Positions 5,153-44,500 are shown, counted from the stretch's first letter. The stretch: 64,000 nucleotides of DNA from a virus (IMGVR_UViG_3300035520_000350:32466-96465); one strand, 5' to 3'. Notes: generated from the sequence alone by a model not told the origin. Program-made: numbers and translations.

Positions 5153-5938
5153 ATGACGAAAGCAAAAACATTACTGAGACACAGTATTGAGAAAGATCTA
5201 AGGAGGATCATTGCTGATGTAGTTGACGTATGGATCGATGATGATATTGATTATCTTGTTGATCTGGTTGAATCATCTGATAGCAGAGAATTTGACTTCC
5301 GTGTAGCTCTTCTCGAAGAAAAGGTAATTGTAAGGATGTGTAAAACGTTCAAAGGTCTTAATCAGAAAAATGTCTACTTCAACATGATCAACCTGTTCAT
5401 CCGGAACTATATGTTCGAGAAGTATGAGGAGCATACCTGGACTGATACTGAAGATTATAAAGCGGTTAGAGAAGCAATCAATGGTGATGATAAGGAAGAA
5501 GATAAGAACGACTGTCAGTGTGCAGACAAATGTAAGAAGGATGGAGAAACCCCTTACAACACCTTTATGAGACAGATGGCTGCCATAGGGTTAAAAGAAT
5601 TGTGTGAGCCGGATCACTGTAGCAAGAATAAAGAGTGTGAAATACCGGAATGGGAAAGAGAAGAATGCCGGAAGAAGATGATCAAGAAAGCGGAAGATAT
5701 TCTTAAAGGCAATGAACCGGAGAAAGATTCCGAGGTTAAGAAAGAGGAGCAGCCTGAAGCAAAGGAAGAAGAGCCTAAGGCTGAAGAAGAGAAGAAGCCA
5801 GAGGAAAAGAAGCAGGAAGGTGAGGAAATCCATGGTATCAAAGGTATCATTGGTGGTAATATGTCTCTCTTTGATATGCTGATGCTGGCGGGATATCTTA
5901 AATCTAAGATCGATTCAGAAACAGATACGTTACATTAA
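5153..5938 (+). CDS. Hypothetical Cys-rich protein, 261 aa, with a Glu/Lys-rich tail.
   Basis: CQCADKCKKDG...CEPDHCSKNKECEIPEWEREEC followed by low-complexity EEQPEAKEEEPKAEEEKKPEEKK. GC is higher than in neighbouring genes. Confidence 0.55.
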   Translation: MTKAKTLLRHSIEKDLRRIIADVVDVWIDDDIDYLVDLVESSDSREFDFRVALLEEKVIVRMCKTFKGLNQKNVYFNMINLFIRNYMFEKYEEHTWTDTEDYKAVREAINGDDKEEDKNDCQCADKCKKDGETPYNTFMRQMAAIGLKELCEPDHCSKNKECEIPEWEREECRKKMIKKAEDILKGNEPEKDSEVKKEEQPEAKEEEPKAEEEKKPEEKKQEGEEIHGIKGIIGGNMSLFDMLMLAGYLKSKIDSETDTLH

Positions 5939-5939
5939 A

Positions 5940-5990
5940 ACAGAAAGAGCGTAGGGTATATACCCTACGCTCCCCTTTTATTTTTTATAC
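5940..5990. terminator. Bidirectional terminator shared by the convergent genes 5153-5938 (+) and 5985-12023 (-).
   Basis: GAGCGTAGGGTATATACCCTACGCTC hairpin with an A-run on the left and a T-run on the right. Confidence 0.6.
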
Positions 5991-25987: not shown

Positions 25988-28900
25988 ATGTATATGAAAA
26001 TCATTAAACGTAGTGGTGTAGAAGATACTTTTGATCCCAGTAAGATTGATATAGCTATCAGAAAAGCTAATGATACAACATTAGATGATTCAGATAAGCT
26101 TAATGATGAACAGATTAAGGGTATCGTAGACTATATTATTAATTACGCTCAGGATTGTGGCAGATCTCTTAATGTAGAAGAGATTCAAGATCTCGTAGAA
26201 GAGCGTATAATGGATGCAGGTGCTTTTGAAGTTGCTAGATCATATATTACCTACAGATACAAAAGAGCATTAGTAAGAAAGACAAACTCGACAGATGATG
26301 CTATATTATCTCTCGTTAGTTGCAACAACGAGGAGATTAAGCAGGAGAATTCTAATAAGAATCCCTATATTAATAGTACTCAGAGAGACTATATTGCCGG
26401 AGAGGTAAGTAAGGATATTACTAGACGATTGTTACTGGATGAAGATATCTGGGATGCTCACGAGAATGGACTCATCCACTTCCATGATGCAGATTATTTC
26501 TTACAACCAATGACGAACTGTTTCCATTCTGATACTGAATTTGTAACGGATAAAGGAGTGGTAAGATTTGGAGATTGTCATGAAGGTGAGAGGATATTTG
26601 TAAGAAACATTACCGGAAATTATGTACCAGCGATGGTTCATAAATATGGTAAACAGAAGATGCAAACTGTTACCTTTAGATCGTGTAGAACTGTTAAGAC
26701 AGTTAGATGCACGTATAACCACAGATGGGTGTTAAAGGACGGAACTATTACTGAATCGTTAAAAGTAGGAGATTCATTGTATCCGACTGTAGATACAACA
26801 AATACACCAATCAATAATCCGTTTATGTTCTGCTTAGGGTTTGTACTTGGAGATGGATCTGATTTTGCCGGAAGTAATATATCAGAGCCTACTGGTGTAA
26901 GAGTTCGTTTATGCGGTAACAAAACTCAATATTTGCCTCATTTTACATTGGCAGGATTTGATATATCAAAAGAGAAATTTCATAATGGAGATATGTCTGT
27001 TACTTTTAGCAAGTATCCATTAAAAAAGAATTTTATTAATGGGTTTGGTTGGCGGTTTCTTTCTTTATCTGATAAGATTGATCTATTTAAGGGGTATTAT
27101 GCTGCAGACGGAAATACTCTTTCAAATGGAATAGCTACAGCAAATCATATATTAGCTCAGATGATAAGAGAGATTTCTGCTTTAGCCGGATACTACATAA
27201 CAAGTGAAAATTTTGAAATTAGGGACACTAATTTCAAGAAAGGAGCTAGTTTATGGACGTTCAGATTTATGAAACGTCAAAGTATTAATAGATGCTGGAA
27301 AGTAGAATCTATAGATAGATCTGATTATCACACATATGACGCTTGGTGTGTAGAAGAACCATCTACTCACACTTTTACTCTTGGAAATGGAATGGTCACT
27401 GGCAACTGTTGCCTCGTTAATCTAGAGGATATGTTGCAGAATGGCACTATCATCTCTGAAACAATGATTGAAACTCCTAAGAGTTTCTCTACTGCTTGTA
27501 ATGTAGCAACTCAGGCTATTGCACAGATTGCAAGCAACCAGTATGGCGGACAGTCTATTACTCTTTCCCATCTTGCTCCATTTGTTGATGTAAGTAGAAA
27601 GAAGATCATAAGGAAAGTAATAGAAGAGTTTGAGACTCTTGGCATTGAGTATACCGATGAGATGGTAAATAATGTTACCGAGTCTAGAGTAAAGGAAGAG
27701 ATCAAGAGAGGTGTACAGACTATTCAGTATCAGGTTATTACTCTTATGACTACTAATGGTCAGGCTCCTTTCATTACAGTATTCATGTATCTTGATGAGG
27801 TACCGGAAGGACAGACTAGAGATGACTTAGCAGCTATCATTGAGGAAACTCTTAACCAGAGATACTTAGGAGTAAAGAATGAGAAAGGTGTATATATTAC
27901 ACCGGCGTTTCCTAAGTTAATCTATGTCTTAGAAGAGGACAATATCCATGAAGATTCTAAGTATTGGTATCTTACTCAGTTAGCAGCAAAGTGTACTGCT
28001 AAGAGATTAGTACCGGATTACATCTCTGAGAAGAAGATGAGAGAGTATAAGAATGAAGATTGTTATCCTTGTATGGGATGTAGATCATTCTTAACTCCTG
28101 ATAGAACAGTAAGAAATTCTGCTAAAGCGTTGAACTACGAAGAAGGAAAACATAAATACTACGGAAGGTTCAACCAAGGTGTTGTTACTATTAATCTTGT
28201 AGATGTAGCTTGTTCTTCTAATGGAGATGAAGATGAGTTCTGGAGAATCCTTGATGAAAGACTTGAGTTATGCTATCGCGCTTTGATGGCTAGACATAAG
28301 AGATTAGAAGGAACTGTATCTGATGTAGCTCCTATCTTATGGCAGAACGGAGCTTATGCAAGATTAGAGAAAGGAGAAGTAATAGATCCACTTCTTCATG
28401 GTGGATATTCTACTATTTCTTTAGGATATGCAGGACTCTGTGAATGTACTGTAAGAATGACAGGAGTAAGACATACTGATCCTAAAGGAACTCCTTTTGC
28501 TTTAAAAGTAATGCAAAGACTTAACGATGCATGTGCTGAATGGAAAGCTAAAGAAGATGTAGACTTTAGTTTATATGGAACGCCGCTTGAGTCTACAACT
28601 TATAAGTTTGCTAAGTGCTTACAGAAGAGATTCGGTAAGATTCCTGGAGTTACTGATAAGAACTATATCACTAACTCTTATCATGTACATGTAACAGAGC
28701 AGATGAATGCTTTTGATAAGTTAAAGTTTGAATCTCAGTTCCAGGTATTATCACCAGGAGGAGCTATCTCGTATGTAGAAGTTCCTAATATGCAGAACAA
28801 TATCCCGGCTGTATTATCAGTGATTCAGTTTATCTATGATAATATCATATATGCTGAATTGAATACTAAGAGCGATTATTGCATGAACTGTGGTTTCGAT

Positions 28901-29032
28901 GGCGAGATTCAGATAGTAGAAGATGAAGACGGTAAGCTCGTTTGGGAATGTCCTTGCTGTGGAAACAGAAATCAGGACACAATGAACGTAGCTAGACGTA
29001 CATGTGGATTGACTGCCAATAGTCCACGTTAA
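25988..29032 (+). CDS. nrdD: Anaerobic ribonucleoside-triphosphate reductase (class III RNR, NrdD), interrupted by an intein.
   Basis: N-terminal ATP-cone (KIIKRSGVEDTFDPSKIDIAIRKA...). C-terminal 4-Cys zinc ribbon CMNCGFDGE...CPCCGN, then a glycyl-radical-like RRTCGL near the C-terminus. SD AAAGGAG. Confidence 0.75.
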   Translation: MYMKIIKRSGVEDTFDPSKIDIAIRKANDTTLDDSDKLNDEQIKGIVDYIINYAQDCGRSLNVEEIQDLVEERIMDAGAFEVARSYITYRYKRALVRKTNSTDDAILSLVSCNNEEIKQENSNKNPYINSTQRDYIAGEVSKDITRRLLLDEDIWDAHENGLIHFHDADYFLQPMTNCFHSDTEFVTDKGVVRFGDCHEGERIFVRNITGNYVPAMVHKYGKQKMQTVTFRSCRTVKTVRCTYNHRWVLKDGTITESLKVGDSLYPTVDTTNTPINNPFMFCLGFVLGDGSDFAGSNISEPTGVRVRLCGNKTQYLPHFTLAGFDISKEKFHNGDMSVTFSKYPLKKNFINGFGWRFLSLSDKIDLFKGYYAADGNTLSNGIATANHILAQMIREISALAGYYITSENFEIRDTNFKKGASLWTFRFMKRQSINRCWKVESIDRSDYHTYDAWCVEEPSTHTFTLGNGMVTGNCCLVNLEDMLQNGTIISETMIETPKSFSTACNVATQAIAQIASNQYGGQSITLSHLAPFVDVSRKKIIRKVIEEFETLGIEYTDEMVNNVTESRVKEEIKRGVQTIQYQVITLMTTNGQAPFITVFMYLDEVPEGQTRDDLAAIIEETLNQRYLGVKNEKGVYITPAFPKLIYVLEEDNIHEDSKYWYLTQLAAKCTAKRLVPDYISEKKMREYKNEDCYPCMGCRSFLTPDRTVRNSAKALNYEEGKHKYYGRFNQGVVTINLVDVACSSNGDEDEFWRILDERLELCYRALMARHKRLEGTVSDVAPILWQNGAYARLEKGEVIDPLLHGGYSTISLGYAGLCECTVRMTGVRHTDPKGTPFALKVMQRLNDACAEWKAKEDVDFSLYGTPLESTTYKFAKCLQKRFGKIPGVTDKNYITNSYHVHVTEQMNAFDKLKFESQFQVLSPGGAISYVEVPNMQNNIPAVLSVIQFIYDNIIYAELNTKSDYCMNCGFDGEIQIVEDEDGKLVWECPCCGNRNQDTMNVARRTCGLTANSPR
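26519..27406 (+). mobile_element. Intein of 296 aa with a LAGLIDADG homing-endonuclease domain, inserted after HFHDADYFLQPMTN of NrdD.
   Basis: Begins with Cys (CFHSDTEF) and ends ...HTFTLGNGMVTGN, followed by the +1 Cys (CCLVNL). Two LAGLIDADG-like blocks, LGFVLGDGS and LFKGYYAADGN, lie about 85 aa apart. Confidence 0.7.
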
Positions 29033-29849: not shown

Positions 29850-29900
29850 TAAGCCGTGGAGGTAATCAACCTCCACGGCTATACTCCTGACTTTTGTTCT
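29850..29900 (+). terminator. Rho-independent terminator.
   Basis: AGCCGTGGAGG-TAATCAA-CCTCCACGGCT followed by a weak T-run. Confidence 0.45.
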
Positions 29901-30036
29901 TGGAGAAGAAACAATGAAAGACATTACCATTAGACATACACATAGAGCCGTATAGGTGACAAGGGGTAAGAACCTATACTTCCTTCGCCAAAGGCTTTAC
30001 GATGTGAAAGGAGTTTTCACGGGAGGGACTTTAAAC

Positions 30037-30101
30037 ACCGCAAAGGTGGGATTCGAACCCACGAGCGCCAGTATGTAAATTTGCTGTTAGTCTAACGATA
30101 A
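30037..30101 (-). ncRNA. tRNA-like module: a perfect T-arm plus an acceptor-like 3' end, with no canonical D or anticodon arms. It contains the motif CTAACAGCAAAT.
   Basis: Minus sense reads ...GTTAGACTAACAGCAAATTTACATACTGGCGCTCGTGGGTTCGAATCCCACCTTTGCG. The T-arm is GTGGG-TTCGAAT-CCCAC. The module is only about 65 nt and abuts tRNA-Tyr. Confidence 0.35.
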
Positions 30102-30184
30102 TGGGTAGAGCTGGACTCGAACCAGCAATGCACGAATGCGACGGATTTACAGTCCGCTGCCTTACCAATTGGGCTCACCTACCC
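30102..30184 (-). tRNA. tRNA-Tyr (anticodon GTA), type II with a long variable arm.
   Basis: Minus sense reads GGGTAGG-TG-AGCC..GGC-A-GCGGA-CTGTAAA-TCCGT-[variable arm GCATTCGTGC..]-GCTGG-TTCGAGT-CCAGC-TCTACCC-A. All stems pair, with G-U wobbles at the stem ends. Confidence 0.7.
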
Positions 30185-30344
30185 GGGTGTGCTGTATTCA
30201 TTTCACATGTTTAAAAGATTTGCAGTCTTTCCTTTTTTGTTTGCTGGGAGTGAAACACTACAGCATTACATCAAATCATTTCTCATACGCGTGTCAATTT
30301 GCCTTAACCTCTTGGCTACATTGAAACTATAATCTAAGTTATAG

Positions 30345-30425
30345 AACCAACAGCAGGAGTCGAACCTGCGCTACAATCGTTAATTGGCGAATGTTTGCTG
30401 TTAAAGAAACCAATCTTTGATGCAA
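30345..30425 (-). ncRNA. tRNA-like module with a T-arm and the motif TTAACAGCAAAC 23 nt upstream. No canonical cloverleaf.
   Basis: Minus sense reads CTTTAACAGCAAACATTCGCCAATTAACGATTGTAGC-GCAGG-TTCGACT-CCTGC-TGTTGGT. Confidence 0.3.
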
Positions 30426-30896
30426 TTGATCTATTATAATCATCAACAACATTTCTCAATGTTATACACAGGAGCTACCTGTGTATATTCGGAGTTGAAC
30501 CGTTACAACCTAATTAAGTTTGCAGTTTGAAGAAACAACTGTTGATAATCATAAACATAAGTTAGTATCATGAAGTTATAACCGGAGGCATTAATCATAA
30601 TATTTTCCGCAATGCAGGCAGAGATTGCTGTTAGATCAACTTATTCGGTCATATAACAATCATGAATTAAGGTAATACTTCCTAAGGTGTTGCAACTGGC
30701 ATTAATCAGCGCTGTAACTGTGTCAGGTCACAGCCAAGATCCGTGTCTACTAAGAGTGGGTCCCATATTGGGTTTGCTGTTTGATCAACCTATCCAATTG
30801 TATAACACTTGTGAAAAGAATTATAGGAAGTATTAAAAATGGCAACCTTTCAAATGTAATTGTATGTGAGGGGAGGCCGCATACATCTAAAAGGTC

Positions 30897-30995
30897 GATG
30901 GATTTGTGGTAGGATTTGAACCTACGTAATACCGGGCGCACACAAAGGATTCACCTAACCCGACCGGTAGCTTAACCGAACTCAGCCACACAAAC
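30897..30995 (-). ncRNA. tRNA-like RNA of about 96 nt. Acceptor, type-II-like D-arm and T-arm are present, but the anticodon arm is replaced by a 6-bp helix (TACCGG/CCGGTA) enclosing 28 nt.
   Basis: Minus sense reads GTTTGTG-TG-GCT-GAGTTCGGTTA-AGC-T-ACCGG[TCGGGTTAGGTGAATCCTTTGTGTGCGC]CCGGTA-TTAC-GTAGG-TTCAAAT-CCTAC-CACAAAT-C. The D-arm resembles Ser/Leu-type tRNAs. No 7-nt anticodon loop can be drawn. Confidence 0.4.
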
Positions 30996-31490: not shown

Positions 31491-32498
31491 TTACTGTTCG
31501 GAAGTAGAATCAGTGGTAGTAGACGATGATGTAATGTCATCAGTGATATCGATGAAAGAGTTGGTATCACCAGTAACTTTTGGCAATGCACCATCCCACT
31601 GCTCGTACTTAATCTTTTCAATAAGTTTGTCTGTTAGTGAAGCGCTAATTTCTTCATTAGCCTGGGCTTCTGCCTGAGCCTGAATAAGAAGTGCATCTGC
31701 TTCCGCCTGTGACTGGATAAGTAAAGCATCTGCCTCACCCTGAGCTTTTACTGCAGCCTGTTCTGCTTCGATCTGTGCTACCTCTTTCTCTTTCTCTGCA
31801 TTGATCTTTGCCGTATCTGCTTCAATCTGAGCAAGCTCTTTCTCCTGCTGAGCATTTACCTTCTTCTGGATTGCTTCTCTTGTTTCATCATCCGGATCGA
31901 TGTTGATCAATGAAGCATTGTCAATAATAATACCATAGGGAGCAAACTTATCCTGTAGATACTCAGTGAGTTCTATATTAAGGGAAGCACGTTTATCTCC
32001 CAAGATATCGGTAACTGCATACTGCGCCGTTACTTCTTTTGTCCAGCTAATAATATTGGGCTTAATAAAGCTATCCTTTACATCTTCACCGGATCTTCCT
32101 TTAAAGCGGACGAACGTATCAGCTACCATAGATTCGTCAAAACGATATGTAAAGGTAAGACTTACTGTAAGACCTTTACCATCAGAAGACGGCACTTCAA
32201 AGCTGTCATCGTCTTTAGAATCTCCCTGTTTATCAGCGGTAAGATAAGACTGCTCAATACCGATACTGTACTTGGTGATCTGCTTTGTAGGTCCAATAAG
32301 GTGCCAGCCCTGGGAAAGGGTAGTACCTTCTACGCCACCGTTCATATTATATACTACTCCTACATATCCTGCAGGAATCTTTACAAGACTCATCTTAAGT
32401 AAGATAAGAACTACTACAATGATAATACCTAAAGCAATACCACCTACTAATCCTTTCTTACTAGTCTTTACTACTTCTTCGTCATAATCCCTACTCAT
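31491..32498 (-). CDS. SPFH/band-7 (stomatin, prohibitin, HflK/C-like) membrane protein, 335 aa.
   Basis: N-terminal TM segment. SPFH core TVSLTFTYRFDESMVADTFVRFKG...IIIDNASLINIDPDDETREAIQKK. C-terminal coiled-coil AQIEAEQAAVKAQGEADALLIQ with repeats. Confidence 0.7.
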   Translation of the reverse strand: MSRDYDEEVVKTSKKGLVGGIALGIIIVVVLILLKMSLVKIPAGYVGVVYNMNGGVEGTTLSQGWHLIGPTKQITKYSIGIEQSYLTADKQGDSKDDDSFEVPSSDGKGLTVSLTFTYRFDESMVADTFVRFKGRSGEDVKDSFIKPNIISWTKEVTAQYAVTDILGDKRASLNIELTEYLQDKFAPYGIIIDNASLINIDPDDETREAIQKKVNAQQEKELAQIEADTAKINAEKEKEVAQIEAEQAAVKAQGEADALLIQSQAEADALLIQAQAEAQANEEISASLTDKLIEKIKYEQWDGALPKVTGDTNSFIDITDDITSSSTTTDSTSEQ

Positions 32499-32650
32499 TT
32501 CTTCTTGTTATCCTCCTTAGAATCTTCATTCATCTCTTCCATTGCATCGCTCCAAATCTTATATAAGAACTTTCCGACTGGCTTAAATGCAAATGCTAAT
32601 AAGAACCATAAACCTACGGCTCCTAATACTACAAGTATTACCAAGACCAT
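32495..32650 (-). CDS. Small membrane protein, 51 aa, translationally coupled to the SPFH gene (NfeD/YuaF-like partner).
   Basis: Minus-strand ORF MVLVILVVLGAVGLWFLLAFAFKPVGKFLYKIWSDAMEEMNEDSKEDNKKK with SD AAAGGAGG. Its stop TGA overlaps the SPFH ATG as ATGA. Confidence 0.45.
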   Translation of the reverse strand: MVLVILVVLGAVGLWFLLAFAFKPVGKFLYKIWSDAMEEMNEDSKEDNKKK

Positions 32651-33254
32651 ATCATTATCCTCCTTTGTAATTGGGTTTTACTTCAAAAGTTTAAACTTTA
32701 GTAAAGTACAATATCAACAACTAATCAGTAGATTCAATTGTTAAAAGGTTTGAGTATTCTAAGGAAGATACAGATATACTTACCCCCAGTAAGGAGGTGT
32801 TCGTCCTTGTCAACCCCCAATACAATCTTTTGTATTATTCAAACTAACCCCTTCCTCGTTGGTGCACAAGCGAGGTTTCATTGAGTTATCTCATTTTGAT
32901 AAGGGCAAAAGACATATAGCCAAAGTATGCAAGTGATATTCTTTCTATATTCCCTATAGAAAGTGGTATCTCTTTAGAGGTTTATCTGAATCTCAAGATA
33001 GTTGGATCTATATCGGGAATAAAATTCACAAAAGACCATCCAAAACACGATACTCTTGTAGTACCGAAAAGGGCTGATTTCCCACTTCCAATCAACCATC
33101 TTACATTGAACAGTGGAGAGATGAGGAAACAGCCCCTTCTTTACGTTTCCCTTTTCAGCATAATTTGTTGTATGGATGTACACTCCTTGCTTACGCAATG
33201 AAACAACAGGGAAATGACAAAGAGAATTTAAGATTGACGATTAAACCGCTAGTT

Positions 33255-33360
33255 TCTCTAACAGCAAACACCTTTTTCAAATAACCGGTTTTGTCACTGG
33301 TTCGAGCCCAGTTATTAGGAGTATACCCCACTTCTAGTATAGCTCAGCAGGGAGAGCAAA
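33255..33360 (+). ncRNA. Plus-sense copy of the tRNA-like module (CTAACAGCAAAC, then 27 nt, then the T-arm ACTGG-TTCGAGC-CCAGT) followed by the D-arm-like TAGCTCAGCAGGGAGAGC. It sits immediately upstream of the Ro60-like gene.
   Basis: Motif at 33258-33269. T-arm at 33296-33312. D-arm-like segment at 33340-33357. Confidence 0.3.
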
Positions 33361-33465
33361 CTGCCAAAGAAAAGAGAGAAATGATTATGCGGTTTTCGTA
33401 TATAGAAACACTTGTTGTACTATCAGCATAAAAACAAAACCTGTACAATGAAAGGAGTATTAAAA

Positions 33466-34953
33466 ATGAGTATGAACTTAGCAGACGCATTAAGAGAAGA
33501 CTCGAAATGGACAGTAACAGAGAACGGAGCAGATGCAAAGAATACCACTGGTAATCCTTTGCTTGATCTGTATGCAACTATTGGATCGTTAAGACAACGT
33601 GATGAAAAAGAAATCATCATGAAGTTTATCTTAGCATTCAATCATGATAAGCAGGGAGCAGTTCGGTGCTTATTCTATGCTCGTGATATCAGAGGTGGAC
33701 TCGGCGAACGTAATACGTTCAGAGTAATCTACAGATACATGGGCGATGCAATGCCTGAGATCGTAGAAGAGTATCTCGGTCTTATTCCGGAGATGGGAAG
33801 ATTTGATGACTTCTATGCTTTGATCGGAACAAAGGCAGAGGATGCTATGTGGGGATATGTAGGTGAGCAGCTTTCGCTTGACCAGAAGTCTATGATCGCT
33901 GGTAAGCCGTGTAGCTTATTAGCTAAGTGGCTTAAGAAAGCTGATTCTAAGAGTAAAGATACCAAGGCTCTTGGAATCTATACAGTAAAGAAGCTTGGTA
34001 TCTCCGTCTACGAGTACAAGCGGTTATGCAATAAACTCCGCAAGTACATCAACGTAGTTGAGGTAAAGATGAGTGAGAATAGGTGGACCAAGATTGAGTA
34101 TGATAAGGTTCCATCTAAAGCTATGCTCAACTATACCAATGCATTCAAGAGGCATGATGAACAGGGCTTCTCTAAGTATATCTTGAATGTAGAGGAAGGA
34201 ACCCAGAAGATCAACACCAGCACTCTGTATCCTTATGATATCGTGCATAAGTATCTGTACGAGACAGGATCAAAAGAGTTGGAAGTAATGTGGGATAATC
34301 TTCCGGATTATCTTAACGGTGTAGAGTGCAATGCTTTAGTCATTGCAGATACATCCGGATCTATGACGTGGGACGGCGGTATGCCTATCTCAAGTGCAGT
34401 AGGTCTCGCTATCTACTTTGCAGAACGTAATAAAGGAGCATTCCATAACCTCTTTATGACGTTCTCATCTCAGTCTAAGATTCATTCTATCGATGGATTG
34501 AAAGGACTGGCTCAGAAGATTAATTTCGTAAAGTCTTCTGATTCATCTTGGTGTGGTAGTACTGATCTTGAAGCGGCATTTACAAGGGTTCTCTACGTAG
34601 CAACACAGAACAAGGTTCCGAAGGAAGAGATGCCCAAAGCATTCATCGTTATCTCTGATATGGAGATCGACAGAGCAACAGAAGATGATAATGAGCATCG
34701 GCAGACATTCTACGATGCTATGAGAGCAAAGTATGCTGTGTTTGGTTATGATCTTCCGAAGATTATCTTCTGGAATGTAAATTCTCGGCATGATGTATTC
34801 CATTCTGATGATCAGAATGACAATACGTTACTTGTATCTGGTCAGTCAGCTAGTACATTCAAGAATATCATCCAGTGCATTGATAAGACTCCGGTAGAGA
34901 TGATGTATGCTGTACTCAACTCTGAGAGATATTCTGTAATCAATATCGAGTAG
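33466..34953 (+). CDS. vWA-domain protein with Ro60/TROVE-like architecture: an alpha-helical N-terminal domain plus a C-terminal vWA with a MIDAS motif. Possible Rsr/Ro60 ortholog or DUF2828-like.
   Basis: The MIDAS motif LVIADTSGSM aligns with Ro60 VLALDVSASM. Further Ro60 vWA-like blocks are WCGSTDLEAAF, KAFIVISDMEIDRA and KIIFWNVNSRHDVFHSDDQNDNTLLVSGQS. The likely start is ATG 33466 with SD AAAGGAG; the ORF track starts at 33412. GC is above the local average. Confidence 0.5.
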   Translation: MSMNLADALREDSKWTVTENGADAKNTTGNPLLDLYATIGSLRQRDEKEIIMKFILAFNHDKQGAVRCLFYARDIRGGLGERNTFRVIYRYMGDAMPEIVEEYLGLIPEMGRFDDFYALIGTKAEDAMWGYVGEQLSLDQKSMIAGKPCSLLAKWLKKADSKSKDTKALGIYTVKKLGISVYEYKRLCNKLRKYINVVEVKMSENRWTKIEYDKVPSKAMLNYTNAFKRHDEQGFSKYILNVEEGTQKINTSTLYPYDIVHKYLYETGSKELEVMWDNLPDYLNGVECNALVIADTSGSMTWDGGMPISSAVGLAIYFAERNKGAFHNLFMTFSSQSKIHSIDGLKGLAQKINFVKSSDSSWCGSTDLEAAFTRVLYVATQNKVPKEEMPKAFIVISDMEIDRATEDDNEHRQTFYDAMRAKYAVFGYDLPKIIFWNVNSRHDVFHSDDQNDNTLLVSGQSASTFKNIIQCIDKTPVEMMYAVLNSERYSVINIE

Positions 34954-35423: not shown

Positions 35424-35538
35424 AATCCTCTAACCTTTTTGTCTCACTTTACTTTATTTTTTCTTTTCACCCCTAATATGGAGTATCCCGAACATCTACA
35501 TAATCATGAAAAATTTTAGTAAAGGAGGCAAAGAGAGT

Positions 35539-38500
35539 ATGGCTAATGCATTACAATACGTCAAAAATGTGGGTAAGTCTTTTGGCTACTCAACAATAGA
35601 GATGCTAGAGAGTTATAACCCACAGATAAAAACCTTAGCCTCTCAAACTAAGGCTTTTGGTTCTGATCTATACCAGACTATTGATGATTTCAAAGCTAGT
35701 ATGACAGACACTGGATCGGAAAAAGGTTTACTTAGTTTAGGAAAAGATAGTATAAGTGAACTTAAGAAGAATCTGTTTGAAGATTTGAAATCTGGTAATT
35801 GGTATAACAAAGCCAGAGCAGAAGAAGTAGAAGGTGCTGCCGTTGCCGATATGTTTGGTTTCGACGACGAAGATTTTAATCTTGATGACTTAGATCTTGA
35901 CTTCTCTGATGATGATTTTGGAGAAGATAATGATGACTTAGCAGCCACCTTTGTTGAAGCGGAGAAAGAGTCTACCGATTCTATTGTAGGAGCTTTAGAT
36001 GAAGTAGGTAATAAAGCTTCACATGCTGTTGCTACTGCTACAGTAAGTTCTGCTGACTTCATTGTTACTTCTAATAGACAGAGTAGTAGAGCATTATATA
36101 GTCTTAACCAGAGAGGATTCCATGATCTTGCTACTGGTTTAGGAGCTATCAATGCTAATATATCTACTATAGTTTCTATGGGCGAACCGTTAACAGCTCA
36201 TATGCAGAATGCTGCAACGTTCTATACTAAGTCTAGTGAATATCAGGATAAAGTACTGGAGAGACTTGACATTCTTGTCAAGTTTGCTAGTCCTGAATCT
36301 AAGACTACTAATTATAGAAAAGAAGGTACTCTTGATTCTATTCTTAATGATGGAGTATTAGATCTTTCCTCATACTTTGATATGCTTATGGGAAGATTCA
36401 AAGACTTTAAAGACGATATTATCGGTATGCTTGATATGCTTGGTGGTCCTGAAGCAGCCATTAAGATGGTTACTGCATCTCCACTTAAGTTCCTTACTGA
36501 TAATCTTGTAAAGTTTGTATTTCCTACAATGATTAAGAATAGTATGCAACAGTTCAATCAGCATCTTGAATCTTTCTTTGGTGCAGCTATTGATAAACTT
36601 CAGTATGCTACTCCAGATGGTGATATTGGAAATCTCTTCGATATGATAAGAGATTACGTAATGCCTAAGAGTGGATATAAAGATAAGATTGATACTAGTA
36701 TGTATCTTAAGGGTAAAGCAGAGTGGACTGGTAAAGACCAGAAAGCTTTGAGAGATGTAATCCCTACTTACCTAGCTCAGATCACTTCTGCAGTAACAGG
36801 TAAACCTGAGACAAGATATGATTATGAGAGAGGTAAGTTTATTACCATATCTGGAATAAAGAATGAGTTTGATAGCAAAGCTAAGAGATATGCTCAAAGT
36901 GCAGGTGGAGACTTCTTATACGATGCTTTAGATGTAGTAAGTAAGTTGGGTCTTAATCCGGAAGATCAGAAGAAGATGAAAGATCAGATCAATGAATTCT
37001 TCCTGAATATGTTTAAGACCGGTAAAGGTGAGATAATGAATCTCCAGAAAGATAACTTTGAATATCAGAAGTATGGATTAGATGATGATAGTGTCAAAGT
37101 TCTGAGAGATATGCTTAATAGCTATGCTAAACTTCATAAGACAGATGTAGCAAACATGGCGGCTACTGAAATGCGCCTACAGAGGGATAGATATGGCGAT
37201 GAGCTTAGAGGTATAGAAGCTAACGGTGGTATCTTTACCTCTCTTTTTGATAACTCTTCTTTACCTACTACTGGAGAAAAGGCTGTTAAAGTAAGACCTG
37301 GTGGAATACTTGGAGTAGATAAGTATAATCATGATCTATTCTTCTACCTTCAGGGTATCTATCAGTATACTGGTCATCTTTCCGACAATATTGGAATACT
37401 TGGTGGAGGATCACCAATCAATCCTAAGGGAGGAAGTTATCGTAATAGAGGTAAAGGTGTTGAACCTACTCCTATTAAGGATATTCCTTATGAGTCTACT
37501 GAGGAAGAGAAGGAGAAAGCTTCTAAGGATAACTCCAATGCTCAGCAGTCTACTGCTCAGTCTAAAGCTCAATCTGTTTATGATACTATCTTTAGTAGAC
37601 ATGAATACGATGAGGGATTCACTGGACAGAGAGAGAAGAAAGATAGACGAAAAGAAGAAGCTAAGTCTAAGTTAGATGCTGACTTAGATGCAGGTGTAAT
37701 CTCAGAAGAGGAGTATAAAGAGAAGATTAAAGAACTTGAGGAAGAATCTAGCAATGCATCTACAGAAAAGTTCTTTAAACGTATGAAAGAAAAAGGTGCT
37801 AAGAGTGAGAAACTTTCTGGTATCAGAAAGGTTATGGATAAGATTCATGGCATCTTTAATAAGCCTGCTGAAGTAGTTAGTGAGATATTAGGAGCAGGAG
37901 AGATATCTATGTATCATCTTCTTTATGGCAAAGGAGGGGATGACGAGAAGGGTATCTTTGCTTACTTCTATGAGAAAGCAGATAGTCTCTTTACTAAGTT
38001 TGATAAATTCTTCGAGGATAAGTTTGACTTCAGTATCAAGTCTTGGTTCAAGAAAATGTTTGGTAAAGCCAAAGATTCAGATTTTGTTCAAGAGACAGGA
38101 GAAGAACTTAAGAATGCTGGAAGAAGTGTATGGGATGATGTAAAGAGATTCACTGGTTTTGGTACCCCTAGTGATGAGAAGGAAGATAATGGAGAGGGAG
38201 AAACTGAGCCTATAGATAATGGTCAAGCAGCAACTGGACGTAAAGTAACTAAGACTGGTATTGTTGCTGTATCTGAAGGTGAGATGATTATCCCATCTGA
38301 ATATAATCCTTATTATCATGGAACTAATGACAAGAAGACTCAGCTTAAGAACGAAGCTAATGCAATAAAGAAGTTCTATGGTAGATATGCTAGAGGTGGA
38401 TTTGCGGGAGCTGCTAAACAAAGCTATGATCCTGAAACAGAAGAGTGGATATACTACGATGCAGAGGGAAATGAGATCGGTAGAAGAGAAGCTACTGAGA

Positions 38501-41500
38501 AAGAGAAGCTTAAGCAGAAAGGTAAGTTTGAATCTGGTAATTCTCATGGACGTACTAAACGTAACTTCTATAGACAGAAGGGTAAGAATCCTAAGAACGT
38601 TAAGGATTTTATCTTTGGTTCTGCAGCTCAGCTTGGTAATGATCTTGAAGATATTCTCAAAAGATTTAAACCTAAGAAAGATGAAGATAGTATCATTGAT
38701 AAAGTAGTCAATGAAGAGAATAGAAAAAGACTCAAAGAAGCTAATCTACCAGAAGAAGTAGTTAAGAATCGTGGTGCTATGGGTGCTGGTGCTCTTATAG
38801 GAGCAGGAGCTTCTATATTAACTGGTGCTGTAGTAGGTCCTCTTGCTGGAGCAGCTATTGGAACTGGAGTGGGTCTTGTAGTAAGATCTGAGAAAGTTCA
38901 GAAAGCTTTATTCGGTGAGGTGGATGAAAGAACTGGAGAAAGACAAGGAGGTATACTCTCTAAGAAAATATCTAATTTCATTGTAGATCAAGTTCCAAGT
39001 ATTGGTAAAGGAGCAGGAGCTGGTGCTATTGGTGGTTTATTTATGGGATCACCTATCATTGGTGCTATCGTTGGTGGCACTGTAGGATTTGTATCTAGCT
39101 CTGAAAAAGCTAAAGAAGCTTTATTTGGTAAACGAGATGAGAATGGTAATTGGATTAACGAAGGACTTATCAATAGTGAGATACAAAAGAAGGTCAAAGA
39201 AGTAGCTCCTAATATTGGAGCTGGTATGATCGCTGGAATGATTGGTGGTCCTTTCGGTATTGCCGGAAACCTTATTGTAGGTGGTGCTTTAGGATATGTG
39301 TCTACCACTGATTCCTTCAAAGATATGCTTCTTGGTAAGAAGGATAAGGATGGTAAGAGGCAAGGTGGATTAGTAGGAGAGATTAGAACTTACTTCTTTG
39401 GAAAGAAAGAAGATGGTGAGAAGCAAGGCGTTCTTACCAGTATCACTGGTATCTTTCAGAAAGTAGGTAATGAGATCTCTATCCACTCTAGAAATATCTT
39501 TAAGACTATTGGTAAGACAATAAGAAAGATAGTATCCGCTGGAGTTAAGTCTACATTAGGTCAGTTTATTGCTACAAGTCCTATTGGTAAGATAGGTAGA
39601 GCTGTAGGCAAAGGTGCTACAGCAATAGCTAAGTTACCATTTAAAGCAGTAAGGAGCACTCTTTCTGGAGTAGATTCTGCATTAGGTAAGAGAGCTTTGA
39701 AGAGAGGCTATGGACTGCTTAATAGTGACGGAAGCAAGATGACAGCTAAGGAAAGATTAGCAGCAAGAGAAGACTATGGCATGAATGAGTCTGTTAAATT
39801 CAGACTTAATAAGTCTTATCAGTCTAATAGAAATCTTGATCAGTACTTAATGGATGCTGATGAGACTCAGTTAAATGAGTTAAAGAGTGTCTTAGAGTAC
39901 TATGAAGATCCTACTAAGAAGTATGATAACGATGAGAGAGCTTATAAGAAAGAGTTTGCTAGTAAGATCGAAGAGTACGGAATTAGTCCAGAGACCGCTG
40001 TTAGATTAGAGAAGTTAGCTGTTGGAAAAGGTAAGTTTAAACCTGATGAGAATATCTCTACTATTCTTGCTAATGCTACTGATAATAAAGAACAGGCACA
40101 AGAGTTAGAGAATATCTTTAATGATATTACTTCTACTAGAATGGGTAGAGTAGAAGCATTAAAGGATAAGGATAAAGCTCGTAAAGACTTACTTGACAAG
40201 TCAGGTATCCTTGGTAAAGTAAAAGGTGTTGATATCAATAGTGACTCTGATATTAGAGAAATGCTTAGCCTTATCAATACTGAGATTGAGGATAGAACTA
40301 AGCCTGATGAAGAGAAAGATAAACAAGATCAGGTAGAACGTGAGGAAACTAATACCGAAAACATCACTACTATTGCTGATGTAATCCAGAAGATCTATGA
40401 TTATATCACTGGTAAAGATGATTATGAAGAAAGAGTTCCTGAGGATACACGTAATGCTATACAAGAAGCGATGGATAATACTGAGCAATCTGTTAGAGCA
40501 GCTAGTCCGTCTAGTGTTACTAATGAAACAGAAGAATCTACAAACACTACTACAGAATCTACTGATAATGGTGCTGGAGAGACCGAACCTATCGGAGAAA
40601 CAGAAGAAGCTGCTGTATCTGAAGGTGAGACTATTATTAATTCTAGAGGTTATAGAAGACCTTCCAAGATTAAGAATGCTATTAACAGTATCAGAGGTAA
40701 GTTCCATAGATTTGTAGGAAGATTTGCAGAAGGAGGTATTGTAGGAGAGTCTTCTGATGAAGAGTTTACTAATCCAGTAGATCAGACTAGATCTATTGTT
40801 GCTAATGCAGTGAATCTCTATACTACTGGTAAGAATGGTTTTGTCTTAGTAGATAGAGATGAAGATAAAGCAGAAGTAAAAGAGTCAGAAGATAAGTTAG
40901 AAGAGAATAAAGAGACAGCTAATACTGCTAGAGAAGCAATAGACAATGCTAAGGATCTTACTAAAGCTAAAGCTAATACAGATGATGGTGGACTTAAAGA
41001 TAGTAAGAGTGGTATTATAACTCAAACAGATGCTTTAGGTAATATCTATCAGATGAAAGAGAACAACGAAGGTGAGCTGGAGATGGATCTTTCTGATTCA
41101 CAAACTCAGCAAGCTATGGAGTCTCAGAGTAAGTTTAAAGAGGCTATATATTCTATTCCGTTACTTGGTGCTGGAATTAAAGGTATCAGTGGATTAATGG
41201 GTTCTCTTAAGAGTGGCTTATTAGGAGATGGAGAAGAGGGAGAAAGTAAGAGTCTGTTATCTACTCTTATTGAAAGCCTTACTGGAGAAGATGGTGTCCT
41301 TAGCGGATTATTCAGCTTCTTTACTAATTCTCCTATTGGAACCGCTGTAAGTACAGTTCTTAGTAGAGTAAGTCTTAGTGGAGTATTAACTGGTATTGGA
41401 TTCCCTGCATTGATTGCATCTGCATTCACTGGTGCTTTTGATGATTTAGGAGCATCTTTATCTGAGAAGATATCTGCTCTTAAGGGTAATGAAACAGAGG

Positions 41501-44500
41501 GTAACGGGACTCTGGATAATAATAAGAAGTACTTCATCGATGGTAAAGAGATCGCTGTAGATGAAAATGGCGAATTCATGAAGAACGAAGATGGAGATTA
41601 TATTGCTGTAGATGGAACAATACTATCTAAGGATGAGAACATTGAATCTTATGGTACTGATACTAGAATCAGTACACAGTTGAAGAAGAATGCTATCTTA
41701 AATACCGGTGGTGTTGCTGCTACTGCTATTGCTTCTGCAGGAAACTTTGTAAAGAAACTTGCTACTGGAGAAAAGGGTACTTATACTTCTTCTACTGCTG
41801 GTAAAGCTATATTAGATGCTAGTAGCTCTATGGCTAACTCTGTTATGGCTACTATCACTAAGCTTCTTGAAAAGATTCCTACAGTATTGAGTAAGATCCC
41901 ATTCATTAAGAAATGGGTAAACGAAGAGAGTTGTACTACAATCTGTGAAACTCTTTCTAAGAATCTTCAGTCTGCTGTTACATCTGCAGGTAATGGTATT
42001 ACTAAAATAGCTGAGAAACTTGGTAAAGTATTTGCAGTAATTAAGGTAGTTAATGTAATTGCTCAAGGTATTGATGCCTGGGGCAATGCAGAAAGCATCT
42101 TAGGAATTGTAGATGAGGCTACTACTGGACAGAGAGTTATTGCTGTACTTATTGCTGTAGTGAATGCTTTGATACCTGTTATTGGAGATCTTATTCCTAA
42201 TAAGGTATTAGTAAATATCTTTATGGAAATAGCTCCTAAGATTGGTATTGATGTATCTGGTCTTGAGGAACAGAGAGAAGAAGCTAAGGCTATTGTAGAT
42301 CAGTATAATGAAGAAACAGGATCTGATCTTACTATTGAAGCTTATAACCAGATGAATGGTAAAGCTGGTGTAATTACTAAAGTTAAAAACTGGGGATCTG
42401 GATTAGTAGCTAATATCAAAGAGAAAGGCTTTGGTACTGCTGTTAGTAATGCTGCTAGTGATATAGGTACTTCTGTAAGTAACTATGTATCAGATAAGGT
42501 TACAAACTTCAAAGAAACATTTGAAGAGAGTGGTCTTGGAGAAGCTGTTGCTAGTACATTAGACAGTATATTACCTGGTCCTATCGGAGATCTTGCTGGT
42601 AATGTGGCAAGAGTTACATCGTTAGCTTTATCTGGTGATGTCAGTGGAGTACTTGGCTTTAATATGGTAGATGTAGATGAGAATAGTGGAGTATTATCCA
42701 AGATTATCAATACTATATTGAGTACTATAGTCAAGATTCCAGAGACTCCTATTGCTGTATTATTCAAAGGTGCTCATGCTGTATTCAATGGAATCAAGAG
42801 TATTGTATCTAAAGTTACCGGATACGTTACTGATACTGTCAATATGATGAACACTGTTAAGGAAGATACTGTTACACTTGTTAATGATCCTAACTCTACA
42901 TTGTCTGATTTCTTTGATTTCAGTGTTTATAAGGATGATGAGGATAATCCAATAGGTGGACTTAGTAAAGTTATAGCAGTATCTACTAGAATAAGCATGT
43001 TTGGACAGATGATTGTGTCCAAGATTGGAAAATCTATTGCTGAGTTTGTGGGAGGTGTTGCAACTAAGATAAAGAATACTGCTACTGCGGCTTGGTCTGA
43101 TAAAGATGCTCTAAAAGAAACTGCTTTAAGCGGAGATGTATCTGGCTTATGGAGTCAAGAAATAGAATTGCCTGAAGACACTCCTGTCAATGGATTCTTT
43201 AAGGTAAGTCATTTCTTAAATAAGATATCTTATATGCCTTTAGCATTCTTTGTCAATGTTGGACATAAGATATCTGACTTTGTAAGTGGTGTAGCTGATA
43301 AGGTAAAAACTAATGTAGGATCTGTAGCTACAGATTACAGTAATCTTAAGGATATAGCAGAATCAGGAGATGTATCTGGCATATGGGATTACACTCATGA
43401 AGAGACAGAAGATTCTCCACTGAATGGTTTTGTTAAAGCAGCTCTGTTTATGAATAAGCTAAGCTTTACACCTAATGCTTTGTTCCATATGGTAGGTAAT
43501 AAGATTAGTGATTTCATTAGTCCTAAGATTGATACTGCTAAATCTGATTACTTAGTATTGACTGAAGGTACTGAAAACCTGAAATCACTCTCCTCAGATG
43601 GTGATATTTCAGGTGTTTGGAATGCAGAATCTCCCAAATTTACAGATGGAGGCATCTTATCACCACTTTATAAGGCTATATATAATGTGCAGAAAATCTT
43701 CTATAGTATTACTGCAATTATCCATAAGATATTTGGATTCATTAGTGATACAATAGGAGGAATCAAAGATAAGTTTGATGACGTTGTTTCTACAGTTAGT
43801 GATACAGTAGACAGCGTTAAAGAGAAGGTATCTGGAACTATTGATAATGTCAAAGATACAGTGTCTAACGTTGCTAATGGAGCATTCCAAAGCGTTAAGA
43901 ACTGGCTGACAGGAAGTGGCTCTGGATTACCAGTAAGCAAAGCTAAGAAGTATAAAGGTGCTGGTTCTAATAAGAATGAGATGTTTGTATCTCAGATTAG
44001 TGACCAGTATAGTAGTATTCCATTCGGAAATTCTACAGTAGGTGATATTGGTTGTGGCCCTGCTGTAGCTACCATGATTGGTAACTTTGAGAAACCTGGT
44101 TCCATTAATATGAAGACTGCTATTAGTGAAGCTAAGGGATATGAAGATGAGAAAGGAACTACTGCCGATTACTTTAAGGAAGTACTAAATAAGAGAGGTT
44201 TATCTAGCAACTATATTGATACACAGAAAGCCACAGGTCAGAAAGATCTTGTTACTGATCTTGCTAATGGTAAGCCTGCTGTATTACTTGGAGAAGATTC
44301 TACAAACGACTCCAAGGAAGCTTCACCTTTCGGACCTACAGGTCATTATGTAATGGCTAAAGGTTTTGATGATAAAGGTAATATTATCATTGAAGATCCT
44401 GAATCTGATACACCTGATAAGGCTTATAGTCCTAATATCTTAAGCAAAGTTAATATGGCTGTAACGACAGATCAAGTCGGAGAAGAGAACACAGATGAGA

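Follow-up and report, generated by a model that had tools for sequence, protein, structure and literature searches.

The window analysed here, a 64,000-nucleotide stretch of a virus genome (IMGVR_UViG_3300035520_000350:32466-96465), encodes a protein of the DUF2828 family with a predicted Ro60 fold and, next to its gene and behind a neighbouring SPFH gene, seven small modular RNAs that share a conserved, non-tRNA handle. Ro60/Y-RNA particles are conserved from bacteria to humans, and their functions are still poorly understood; Ro60 binds Y RNA via a conserved bulged helix. We interpret the region as a phage version of the Ro60/Y-RNA ribonucleoprotein (RNP), in which modular RNAs combine a docking handle with a tRNA-mimic cargo, and put the probability of this reading at roughly 0.7. 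The pairing of a Ro60-like vWA protein with YrlA-type tRNA-like RNAs had been proposed in a preliminary description made from the sequence of the window alone; this core claim is borne out by the fold match of the protein, by matches of the RNAs to the core of the YrlA model and by a covariance model built from other phages that recognizes the RNA immediately upstream of the gene with E=8.7e-9. A large family of phage proteins, represented in 710 phage records, thus appears to be tied to a family of partner RNAs that is recognisable by sequence, and the rule P1-ACAGCAA...P1'-UG (P1 and P1' being the two strands of a helix) is a simple way to find such RNAs. Beside phage tRNA clusters, they probably account for many of the gaps without annotation and for some small open reading frames (ORFs) whose annotation seems mistaken.

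A predicted Ro60 fold in a phage protein family

The protein encoded at 33466-34953 on the plus strand, downstream of a ribosome-binding site (GAAAGGAG), is 495 amino acids (aa) long and contains the motif DTSGSM. An identical protein is encoded on a 243-kb contig, which makes a jumbo phage the probable source of the window. Its N-terminal part matches Pfam DUF2828 (E=2e-33, 116.3 bits against a cut-off of 29), its C-terminal part matches the vWA domain DUF7788 (E=2.2e-39, 135.4 bits against a cut-off of 27.1), and residues 4-490 match PHROG 850, 'RNA-binding protein', with E=7e-126. Residues D295, S297, S299, T366 and D398 are invariant in 16 distant homologues that are 31-65% identical to the window protein, so the MIDAS (metal ion-dependent adhesion site) is complete. 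The Pfam domains and the invariant residues agree with the preliminary description, where a vWA protein with a MIDAS and a helical domain in front had been recognized.

An AlphaFold2 model of the window protein was obtained from a 34-sequence alignment (pLDDT 72.7, pTM 0.66). In the Foldseek comparison that had been suggested for this protein, full-length alignments are confined to the Ro60 proteins, which also rank first: phiRo60 of Thermus phage phiLo (9kop) comes out on top with E=2.2e-8 and TM 0.56/0.59, followed by Xenopus Ro60 (1yvr) with E=3.6e-6, and all other matches cover the vWA domain only. The model combines HEAT-like helical repeats with a vWA domain and is Ro60-like along its whole length. 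Judging by this model, the window protein has the Ro60 fold and is a distant structural relative of Ro60; by sequence, it belongs to a separate family, dominated by phages. The kinship with Ro60 and TROVE that had been suggested for the N-terminal domain thus holds for the fold, where the match extends beyond the vWA domain, and fails for the sequence, in which TROVE is not detectable.

Homologues of the DUF2828 protein were identified by tblastn in 710 phage records, which include Felixounaviruses and phages of Listeria (P100-like), Staphylococcus, Enterococcus, Bacillus, Campylobacter, Vibrio and Aeromonas. A further group of 95 among these records are mycobacteriophages, where the protein is annotated as 'Ro-like RNA binding protein'. 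The expectation that a system of this kind would be unusual in a phage is therefore not sustained. In the Pectobacterium jumbo phage CBB (KU574722), the homologue encoded at 102794-104245 is annotated as 'structural protein', a hint that the DUF2828 protein might be packaged in the virions of some phages.

A structured RNA family linked to DUF2828 genes

The seven RNA modules of the window, M1 to M7 (Table 1), are built on a common frame that consists of an outer helix P0, a helix P1, one to three nucleotides, the motif ACAGCAA, a variable interior, P1' and a G. In all seven, P1 is 7 bp long, with GUUNNNN paired to N'N'N'N'AAU; the variants of the motif are ACUGCAA in M3 and CCAGCAA in M5. When the modules were folded, as had been proposed as a check, the closing helices were recovered in every one of them under unconstrained folding. 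M7 shares the strand of the gene, and 70 nt separate its end from the gene start. It contains the exact 12-mer CTAACAGCAAAC (33258-33269), followed by the T arm and the D arm, that had been noticed upstream of the vWA gene. The minus strand holds six copies of the 12-mer between 30079 and 30783, each with at most two mismatches, and the three or four further modules initially counted beside the tRNA-Tyr proved to be six that carry the handle; the other sequence features listed in the preliminary description are all present in the window as well. The window has 8 matches to the T-loop pattern GGTTCGANYCC where 1.3 would be expected, a count reached in none of 100 shuffles. Seven of the 8 matches fall within 30049-30922 or at 33299, and two of these are the two strands of one site (30049-30060).

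For comparison, we used a set of 93 DUF2828 loci (668 kb) from which the window was excluded. In these loci, the gene strand has 362 occurrences of ACAGCAA where 51 are expected from composition, and the opposite strand has 42 where 33 are expected. When a 6-bp helix and the trailing G are required in addition, the gene strand has 193 sites (approximately 9 in dinucleotide shuffles) and the opposite strand 9 (approximately 6 in shuffles), and at least one such handle-plus-helix module is present in 82 of the 93 loci. Positions were counted for 144 modules in loci with full flanks: 80 are located within 300 nt upstream of the gene, 21 are 300-600 nt upstream, and 2 are inside the gene. DUF2828 genes are accompanied by the same frame in phages of Listeria, Staphylococcus, Bacillus, Campylobacter, Fusobacterium, Enterococcus and mycobacteria, in FelixO1-like phages and in about 80 contigs of IMG/VR; the conserved elements of the phage handle are ACAGCAA and an invariant G one position after P1' (usually UG).

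Two covariance models were constructed from other phages only, again with the window excluded: R1 from 46 short modules and R2 from 14 aligned long elements. Searched against the DUF2828 loci, R2 detects 72 long modules at E<=1e-3. The gene strand carries 70 of these, and the remaining 2 belong to a minus-strand array in the relative L095 that is the counterpart of the array in the window. The matches to both models within the window are included in Table 1. Far from the locus, at 63493-63563 on the minus strand, there is also a weak R1 match (15.5 bits, E=0.17) with the variant UACUGCAAU, which may be due to chance.

Table 1. Features of the DUF2828 locus and its surroundings (positions in the window; R1 and R2, covariance models of short and long modules)
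Feature	Position	Strand	Evidence	Structure and cargo
Gene for predicted Ro60-fold protein	33466-34953	+	N-terminal DUF2828 helical repeats; C-terminal DUF7788 vWA domain with MIDAS	
M7, long YrlA-like module	33243-33395	+	R2 (33250-33386, 57.2 bits, E=8.7e-9); Rfam YrlA; minimum-free-energy fold with P0 and P1 recovered	P0 33243-49/33389-95; P1 33252-58/33376-82; ACAGCAA 33261-67; T arm 33296-312; acceptor-like hairpin 33313-39; D arm 33342-57
M1	30693-30800	-	Handle GUUGAUC..ACAGCAA..GAUUAAU-G; fold gives P0 and P1	8-bp hairpin, without T arm
M2, short form	30580-30650	-	R1 (16.7 bits, E=0.08, weak); fold	Hairpin UCUGC-CUGCAUU-GCGGA, 7-nt loop
M3	30442-30546	-	Motif ACUGCAA; P1; fold	Degenerate T-arm-like hairpin and 10-bp hairpin
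M4, long YrlA-like form	30268-30423	-	R2 (30274-30412, 41.3 bits, E=1.1e-5); fold	T arm 30369-53; acceptor-like hairpin 30352-19; 3-bp D arm 30316-01
M5, short form	30191-30264	-	Motif CCAGCAA; R1 (26.7 bits, E=1.8e-4); fold	AAAGA-CUGCAAA-UCUUU, anticodon-stem-loop look-alike with GCA (Cys-like) loop
M6	29929-30096	-	Handle GUUAGAC..ACAGCAA..GUCUAAU-G; fold with 11-bp closing helix; R2 partial (29957-30098, 20 bits, E=0.17)	T arm 30062-46; remaining cargo divergent
tRNA-Tyr(GTA), embedded in module array	30102-30184	-	ARAGORN; Rfam tRNA 52.3 bits	
tRNA-shaped RNA	30901-30995	-	Rfam tRNA 43.2 bits (gathering score 29)	27-nt insert in anticodon loop
SPFH/Band-7 membrane protein gene	31491-32498	-	Pfam Band_7 (E=6.5e-26, 91.9 bits, cut-off 23.6); PHROG 200	
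51-aa single-pass membrane protein gene	32495-32650	-	ORF overlapping SPFH start by 4 nt	
Terminator candidate	29852-29880	-	Direct sequence reading; also spurious Rfam matches	11-bp GC-rich hairpin and U-rich tail

The long modules, M7 and M4 in the window and their counterparts across the family, carry a tRNA-like core in which the T arm, an acceptor-like hairpin and the D arm follow each other in a permuted order inside an end-to-end closing stem, as in YrlA. In the alignment of the 14 long elements from other phages, 99.1% of the cells are paired and 14 of the 16 pairs show compensatory changes, a number reached in none of 500 shuffles; slid registers of the same alignment are only 35-49% paired. 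The changes extend to all seven pairs of the acceptor-like helix, a helix that was not used in selecting the sequences. That the modules might turn out to be decayed tRNA pseudogenes with no structure beyond the T-arm, a case foreseen in the preliminary description, is contradicted by the compensatory changes in all the core helices. The pair count for P1 in the alignment of short modules (A4) was discarded as evidence because the sequences had been chosen for having a stem, which makes the count circular. The case for the family is instead built on the strand and shuffle controls, on the covariance models from which the window was excluded and on the acceptor-like helix. A pseudoknot between ACAGCAA and the 3' tail was considered as well and rejected: UAACA/UGUUA in an Enterococcus phage and UACAG/CUGUA in the gut-virome relative L003 were promising, and no complementarity was found in the window modules or in locus L001. 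The RNA family is structured, covarying, strand-specific and physically linked to the DUF2828 gene across phyla.

At gathering thresholds, the Rfam search of the window reports only the tRNA-Tyr. Below them, the YrlA model aligns with M7 at 33288-33362 (22.5 bits, E=0.17, gathering score 69) through its positions 23-86, that is, the tRNA-like core. Further sub-threshold YrlA matches were detected beside the gene in two gut-virome relatives (31-41 bits), in Enterococcus phage TJE2 (three copies, 26-47 bits) and in mycobacteriophage Clautastrophe (39 bits), in the last case in the unannotated gap right after the gene. The comparison with Rfam YrlA that had been recommended thus places the core beside the gene, here and in relatives, with scores of 22.5-47 bits that do not reach the gathering score. 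For the short modules, no match to an Rfam family was obtained at E<=1, including in loci where they abound. Our literature search found no description of ACAGCAA-handle RNAs or of their link to DUF2828, and an earlier description elsewhere is possible.

The cargo of the short modules is of a different kind. Their commonest hairpin loop is 7 nt long, and a loop of the anticodon type, N-U-NNN-R-N closed by at least 3 bp, is present in 24 of the 101 non-redundant short modules compared to 0.8% of shuffled interiors, with the 24% being a rough figure because related loci are not independent. Among the anticodon-type loops are CUUUUAA, CUGUUAA, CUGCUAA, CUUGAAA and CUGCAAA, which match those at the anticodons of tRNA-Lys(UUU), Asn(GUU), Ser(GCU), Ser(UGA) and Cys(GCA), respectively. 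M5 and M2 (loop CUGCAUU) of the window are look-alikes of this kind. An instructive arrangement is found in Synechococcus phage B23 (L013, MN695335; 4369-4478), where a 110-nt RNA annotated as 'tRNA-OTHER/Undet' is tRNA-like and non-permuted, with the acceptor, the D arm, a P1 hairpin followed by UAACUGCAA in the place of the anticodon region, the T arm and the acceptor strand in succession. This arrangement suggests that the modules originated from a tRNA whose anticodon loop gained the handle, and the B23 RNA has the look of a step in evolution from a tRNA towards the permuted modules.

Known Ro60 systems, possible functions and alternative explanations

In bacteria, the Ro60 orthologue Rsr is accompanied by YrlA (RF02553): YrlA adjoins TROVE-annotated Ro genes in 254 bacteria and 22 phages, the criterion being a location on the strand of the Ro gene and no more than approximately 4 kb from it (Chen et al. 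2014, PMC4201824). M7 lies within this distance and on the gene strand. The two systems share several features. Both consist of a protein with helical repeats, presumably a ring in the window protein as well, and a MIDAS-bearing vWA domain, and of small RNAs whose genes are at most a few hundred nucleotides from that of the protein, in most cases share its strand and are sometimes present in more than one copy. In both, the RNAs have a closing stem and the permuted T arm, acceptor-like hairpin and D arm, and there are shorter partner RNAs without the tRNA domain, YrlB in one case and the short modules in the other. Both loci are linked to tRNA and RNA-repair genes. The two also differ. The phage protein consists of DUF2828 and DUF7788, with TROVE undetectable by sequence; the phage RNAs score 22-47 bits against the gathering score of 69; the phage arrays reach 6-14 modules; and many phage cargos are anticodon-stem-loop look-alikes rather than tRNA top halves. 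The Rfam consensus of the canonical YrlA stem has AUGC in its 5' strand and, in its 3' strand, ACUUG (AaAcUuG), in contrast to P1, ACAGCAA and UG in the phage handle. This Rsr-binding stem consensus is unmatched in the window, where YrlA aligns with the core alone. Because both partners miss the curated thresholds and the handle differs, the phage system is a distinct branch, not a canonical Rsr/YrlA pair.

Among phage-encoded relatives, phiRo60 of Thermus phage phiLo binds two upstream Y-like RNAs, Yrl1 and Yrl2, as well as the host PNPase (PMC12135203). It shares with the system described here the phage-encoded Ro60 fold (PDB 9KOP, 9L5Y) and the location of Y-like RNAs upstream of the gene (PMC12135203). 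Unlike the window protein, phiRo60 is missed by the DUF2828 family profile at the sequence level, and its RNAs are defined by a CGAA motif, not ACAGCAA, with no tRNA-like cargo or array described (PMC12135203).

Members of the DUF2828 family itself have been noticed previously. The protein gp130 of phage Bas63, which is Ro60-like by structure, counters the Ppl defence system, and the authors of the PhageMaP preprint speculated that some of the annotated tRNAs near gp130 might be Y RNAs, without identifying the RNA partner (PMC11482910). The gp130 protein belongs to the same family as the window protein (31% identity over the full length, E=3e-70), and its gene abuts a tRNA array. We found that this array contains one long and one short unannotated handle-bearing module between the annotated tRNAs. 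The long module (MZ501086 82779-82910; 1080-1211 in L101) scores 87 bits, with a sequence essentially equal to that of the FelixO1-like seed member of the model, and the short module (MZ501086 82237-82300; 538-601 in L101) lies between tRNA-Met and tRNA-Asn and scores 29.7 bits (E=2.7e-5). A YrlA-like module is also located inside the tRNA array of the FelixO1-like phage UAB_Phi87 (L006 4883-5014). The long modules of both phages overlap reverse-strand coding sequences annotated as 'hypothetical protein', bas63_0137 and Phi87_08, which are probably mis-annotations. The 'Ro-like RNA binding protein' of cluster E mycobacteriophages is likewise a member of the family, with 37% identity to the window protein, and is accompanied by a Band-7-like gene, a tRNA-Tyr and unannotated YrlA-like and short modules. 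In contrast to the window, all elements are on one strand, in Clautastrophe in the order Band-7-like gene, tRNA-Tyr, Ro-like gene and modules, such that the modules are 3' of the gene; the protein alone has been annotated. The system matches TROVE and YrlA in architecture and misses the curated sequence thresholds of both, and we class it as a separate, widespread variant of the Ro/Y-RNA kind in phages.

Under this interpretation, the handle, made up of P0, P1, an asymmetric bulge whose 5' strand starts with ACAGCAA and the G that follows P1', would serve as the protein docking site, in the manner of the bulged helix bound by Ro60. It would present the cargo, either a permuted tRNA top half (T arm, 7-bp acceptor-like hairpin and D arm) or a short hairpin, often a copy of an anticodon stem-loop. 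The RNAs would share a transcript with the gene or with the tRNA-like array, would be trimmed in the way of tRNA precursors and would then be bound by the protein, and the resulting RNPs could engage tRNA-acting enzymes by tRNA mimicry. The outcome might be the tethering of repair or decay enzymes, of the RtcB or PNPase kind, to the ring, or else the soaking up of host defence nucleases that target tRNAs; either way, translation would be protected during infection.

A more far-reaching and clearly tentative extension, to which we would not give even odds, is that the DUF2828 protein and the handle RNAs form a pan-phage programmable platform, acting as a decoy that traps anticodon nucleases and other tRNA-targeting effectors or as a guide for the repair of cleaved tRNAs. 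One ring would then display interchangeable tRNA parts, namely acceptor/T/D top halves or anticodon stem-loops identical to the ones in tRNA-Lys(UUU), Asn(GUU), Ser(GCU/UGA) and Cys(GCA), that turn over fast between related phages. The diversity of the cargo, chiefly the copies of anticodon loops, suggests that Ro-type RNPs are tied to the tRNA-centred arms race between phages and bacterial immunity. With the handle rule and the modular tRNA-part cargo in hand, the function of a protein family present in 700 genomes becomes directly testable, and the Bas63 protein has a counter-defence phenotype.

Several observations weigh against the identification of the region as a Ro60/Y-RNA system. On the protein side, the Pfam scan at E<=1 yields DUF7788, DUF2828 and VWA_2 and no TROVE, and neither single-sequence phmmer nor the 16-sequence family profile retrieves a Ro60 chain from the PDB sequences at E<=10. 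A sequence-level case for homology to TROVE was accordingly given up, leaving the comparison of folds as the sole link to Ro60, and the AlphaFold2 model used in it is of moderate quality only. On the RNA side, the YrlA matches are far below the gathering score and the phage handle is unlike the YrlA stem; M3 is undetected by R1 and R2 at E<=10, and M2 and M6 are detected weakly by the covariance models; six of the seven window modules are on the strand opposite to the gene, behind the SPFH gene and 2.7-3.5 kb away; and an anticodon-like loop is present in only about one fourth of the short modules. Furthermore, T7 is rescued on Ppl by gp130 alone, whether a plasmid or the T7 genome carries its gene (PMC11482910), so that at least this activity may not need the cognate RNAs. 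Binding of the RNAs by the protein, their expression and processing, and the biological role of the system are what we infer by analogy with Ro60/Y RNA, Rsr/YrlA and phiRo60.

The strongest competing explanation, which we nevertheless consider unlikely, casts the handle as a cis-acting signal, either for processing or stability of a tRNA/sRNA operon or as a translational leader of the gene, with the RNAs and the protein being merely co-transcribed neighbours. Such a role would fit the clustering of the modules right 5' of the gene, where the last P1' often runs into the Shine-Dalgarno sequence (for example, ...GTGTCC-TGAAAGGAG), the interleaving of the modules with real tRNAs that processing of the same transcript would release, and the activity of gp130 alone against Ppl. 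However, the motif is retained, with covarying P1, across phages of Actinobacteria, Firmicutes, Proteobacteria, Cyanobacteria, Fusobacteria and Campylobacter, and it tracks the DUF2828 gene rather than the host processing machinery. Some copies, including those in the window and in L095, are located downstream of the gene or on the other strand and so cannot act as a leader, and the architecture of the modules parallels the Ro-binding bulged stem of Y RNAs.

Somewhat less probable still is the assignment of the minus-strand array to the SPFH/Band-7 operon instead of the Ro-like protein. The array is co-oriented with the SPFH gene and directly downstream of it in the window, L095 and L096; L014 and L018 likewise have SPFH next to the locus; in Clautastrophe, a Band-7-like gene and then tRNA-Tyr come ahead of the Ro-like gene; and the handle-less tRNA-shaped element at 30901-30995 sits closest to SPFH. 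SPFH scaffolds have reportedly been proposed, by Burroughs and Aravind in 2016, to be paired with a tRNA-like RNA in RNA-repair systems, which this assignment would fit. Against it, the array modules share their handle with modules next to DUF2828 genes in loci where SPFH is missing within 3-10 kb, and the majority of loci lack SPFH. Finally, the notion that the modules are decaying tRNA pseudogenes or duplicated fragments of tRNA clusters without a function of their own, next to a generic vWA protein, draws on their location in or beside tRNA clusters, the tRNA-like T and D arms, the degenerate cores of M3 and M6 and the annotation of one FelixO1-like tRNA-Tyr as a pseudogene, and is essentially excluded by the preserved permuted order of the T arm, acceptor hairpin and D arm with compensatory changes in every helix and by the strand-specific non-tRNA handle conserved across phyla, as well as being at odds with the match of the protein to Ro60 well beyond the vWA domain.

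The SPFH pair, tRNAs and other neighbours

The translated SPFH gene, which is located immediately upstream of the minus-strand RNA array in the same orientation, has a hydrophobic N-terminal segment compatible with a membrane anchor. Its 51-aa partner has no family match, NfeD-type included; homologues of this ORF are found beside SPFH in L018 and L078, and a 55-aa gene occupies the same position in L095. In L095, the protein of which is 65% identical to the window protein, the order is NrdD, NrdG, a minus-strand array of eight modules with the same tRNA-Tyr, Band_7, the 55-aa gene, a 149-aa gene, six plus-strand modules and DUF2828, and the synteny of SPFH and the array is the same in L095 and L096. 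At the nucleotide level, the window and L095 align only in the tRNA-Tyr, a 21-nt exact match at the T arm of M6 and the SPFH operon; because so little of the array aligns, individual modules apparently turn over quickly. SPFH was considered as a universal component of the system and rejected: tblastn finds it in few loci, with L014 and L018 having it within 3 kb and most loci lacking it, and a 10-kb view of another lineage contains none. The SPFH pair that had been described between the RNAs and the Ro-like gene is thus present in the window and linked to the locus in several lineages, and is absent from most loci.

The block was also thought to be a GC-rich, horizontally acquired unit. Its GC content is 0.40-0.42 compared to 0.35-0.38 in the flanks, an excess of only 0.03-0.06, and the order NrdD-NrdG-RNA array-SPFH-DUF2828 is kept in the 65%-identical relative. 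With the difference so small and the synteny conserved, the case for acquisition is weak, and we rejected the GC-rich island as a recent transfer.

Clusters of tRNA genes abut the DUF2828 gene in many lineages. The tRNA-Tyr of the window, which the preliminary description had called genuine and which both ARAGORN and Rfam recognize as such, is 81% identical to its counterparts in L095 and L096. A tRNA-Tyr adjoins the DUF2828 locus in five very different lineages: in the window (30102-30184), L095 (5236-5320), L005 (1229-1312), L012 (1796-1881) and L006 (4533-4620), the last of these being the tRNA-Tyr of UAB_Phi87 that is annotated as a pseudogene.

The tRNA-shaped element at 30901-30995 on the minus strand folds as a cloverleaf (z=-2.4), with a 6-bp anticodon-like stem around approximately 24-28 nt and an acceptor helix that can be extended to 11 bp. 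It lacks the 7-nt anticodon loop of a tRNA, and ARAGORN makes no tRNA call at this position. The element carries no ACAGCAA handle and has no clear counterpart in L095. The claim that it is tRNA-shaped with a 6-bp helix around 28 nt in place of the anticodon arm (given as 30897-30995) is correct, and its attribution to the YrlA type is not, because the element is unpermuted and without the handle. Between this element and the SPFH gene, the GC-rich segment 30996-31275 on the minus strand is predicted to form long helices (z=-2.1) and matches no Rfam family; it could be a further structured RNA or the 3' untranslated region of the SPFH operon. At the other end of the array, the hairpin at 29852-29880 is likely to mark the end of the minus-strand transcript, and is not among the calls of a consensus terminator scan.

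In Listeria phage LP-048 (L007), two enzymes are encoded downstream of the DUF2828 gene, an HD phosphohydrolase at a distance of approximately 0.6 kb and an RtcB-like tRNA-splicing ligase (5337-6494) at 1.3 kb; the association of DUF2828 with an RtcB-like ligase echoes the bacterial rsr-yrlA-rtcBA operon. Elsewhere in the window, the anaerobic ribonucleotide reductase NrdD (25988-29032, plus strand) matches Pfam in two stretches that are approximately 290 residues apart. The intervening sequence has C...HN-C-like junctions and may be an intein; it has no match to an intein family at E<=0.001. In L095, a 208-aa ORF interrupts the NrdD gene. The gene that directly follows the Ro-like gene, 35506-46305 on the plus strand, encodes a 3599-aa protein, presumably a virion or tail protein given the tail lysozyme, CHAP and C39-like peptidase domains in its C-terminal third. 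The gut-virome relative L003 contains a type II hammerhead ribozyme at 26-92 on the minus strand (48.1 bits, gathering score 37).

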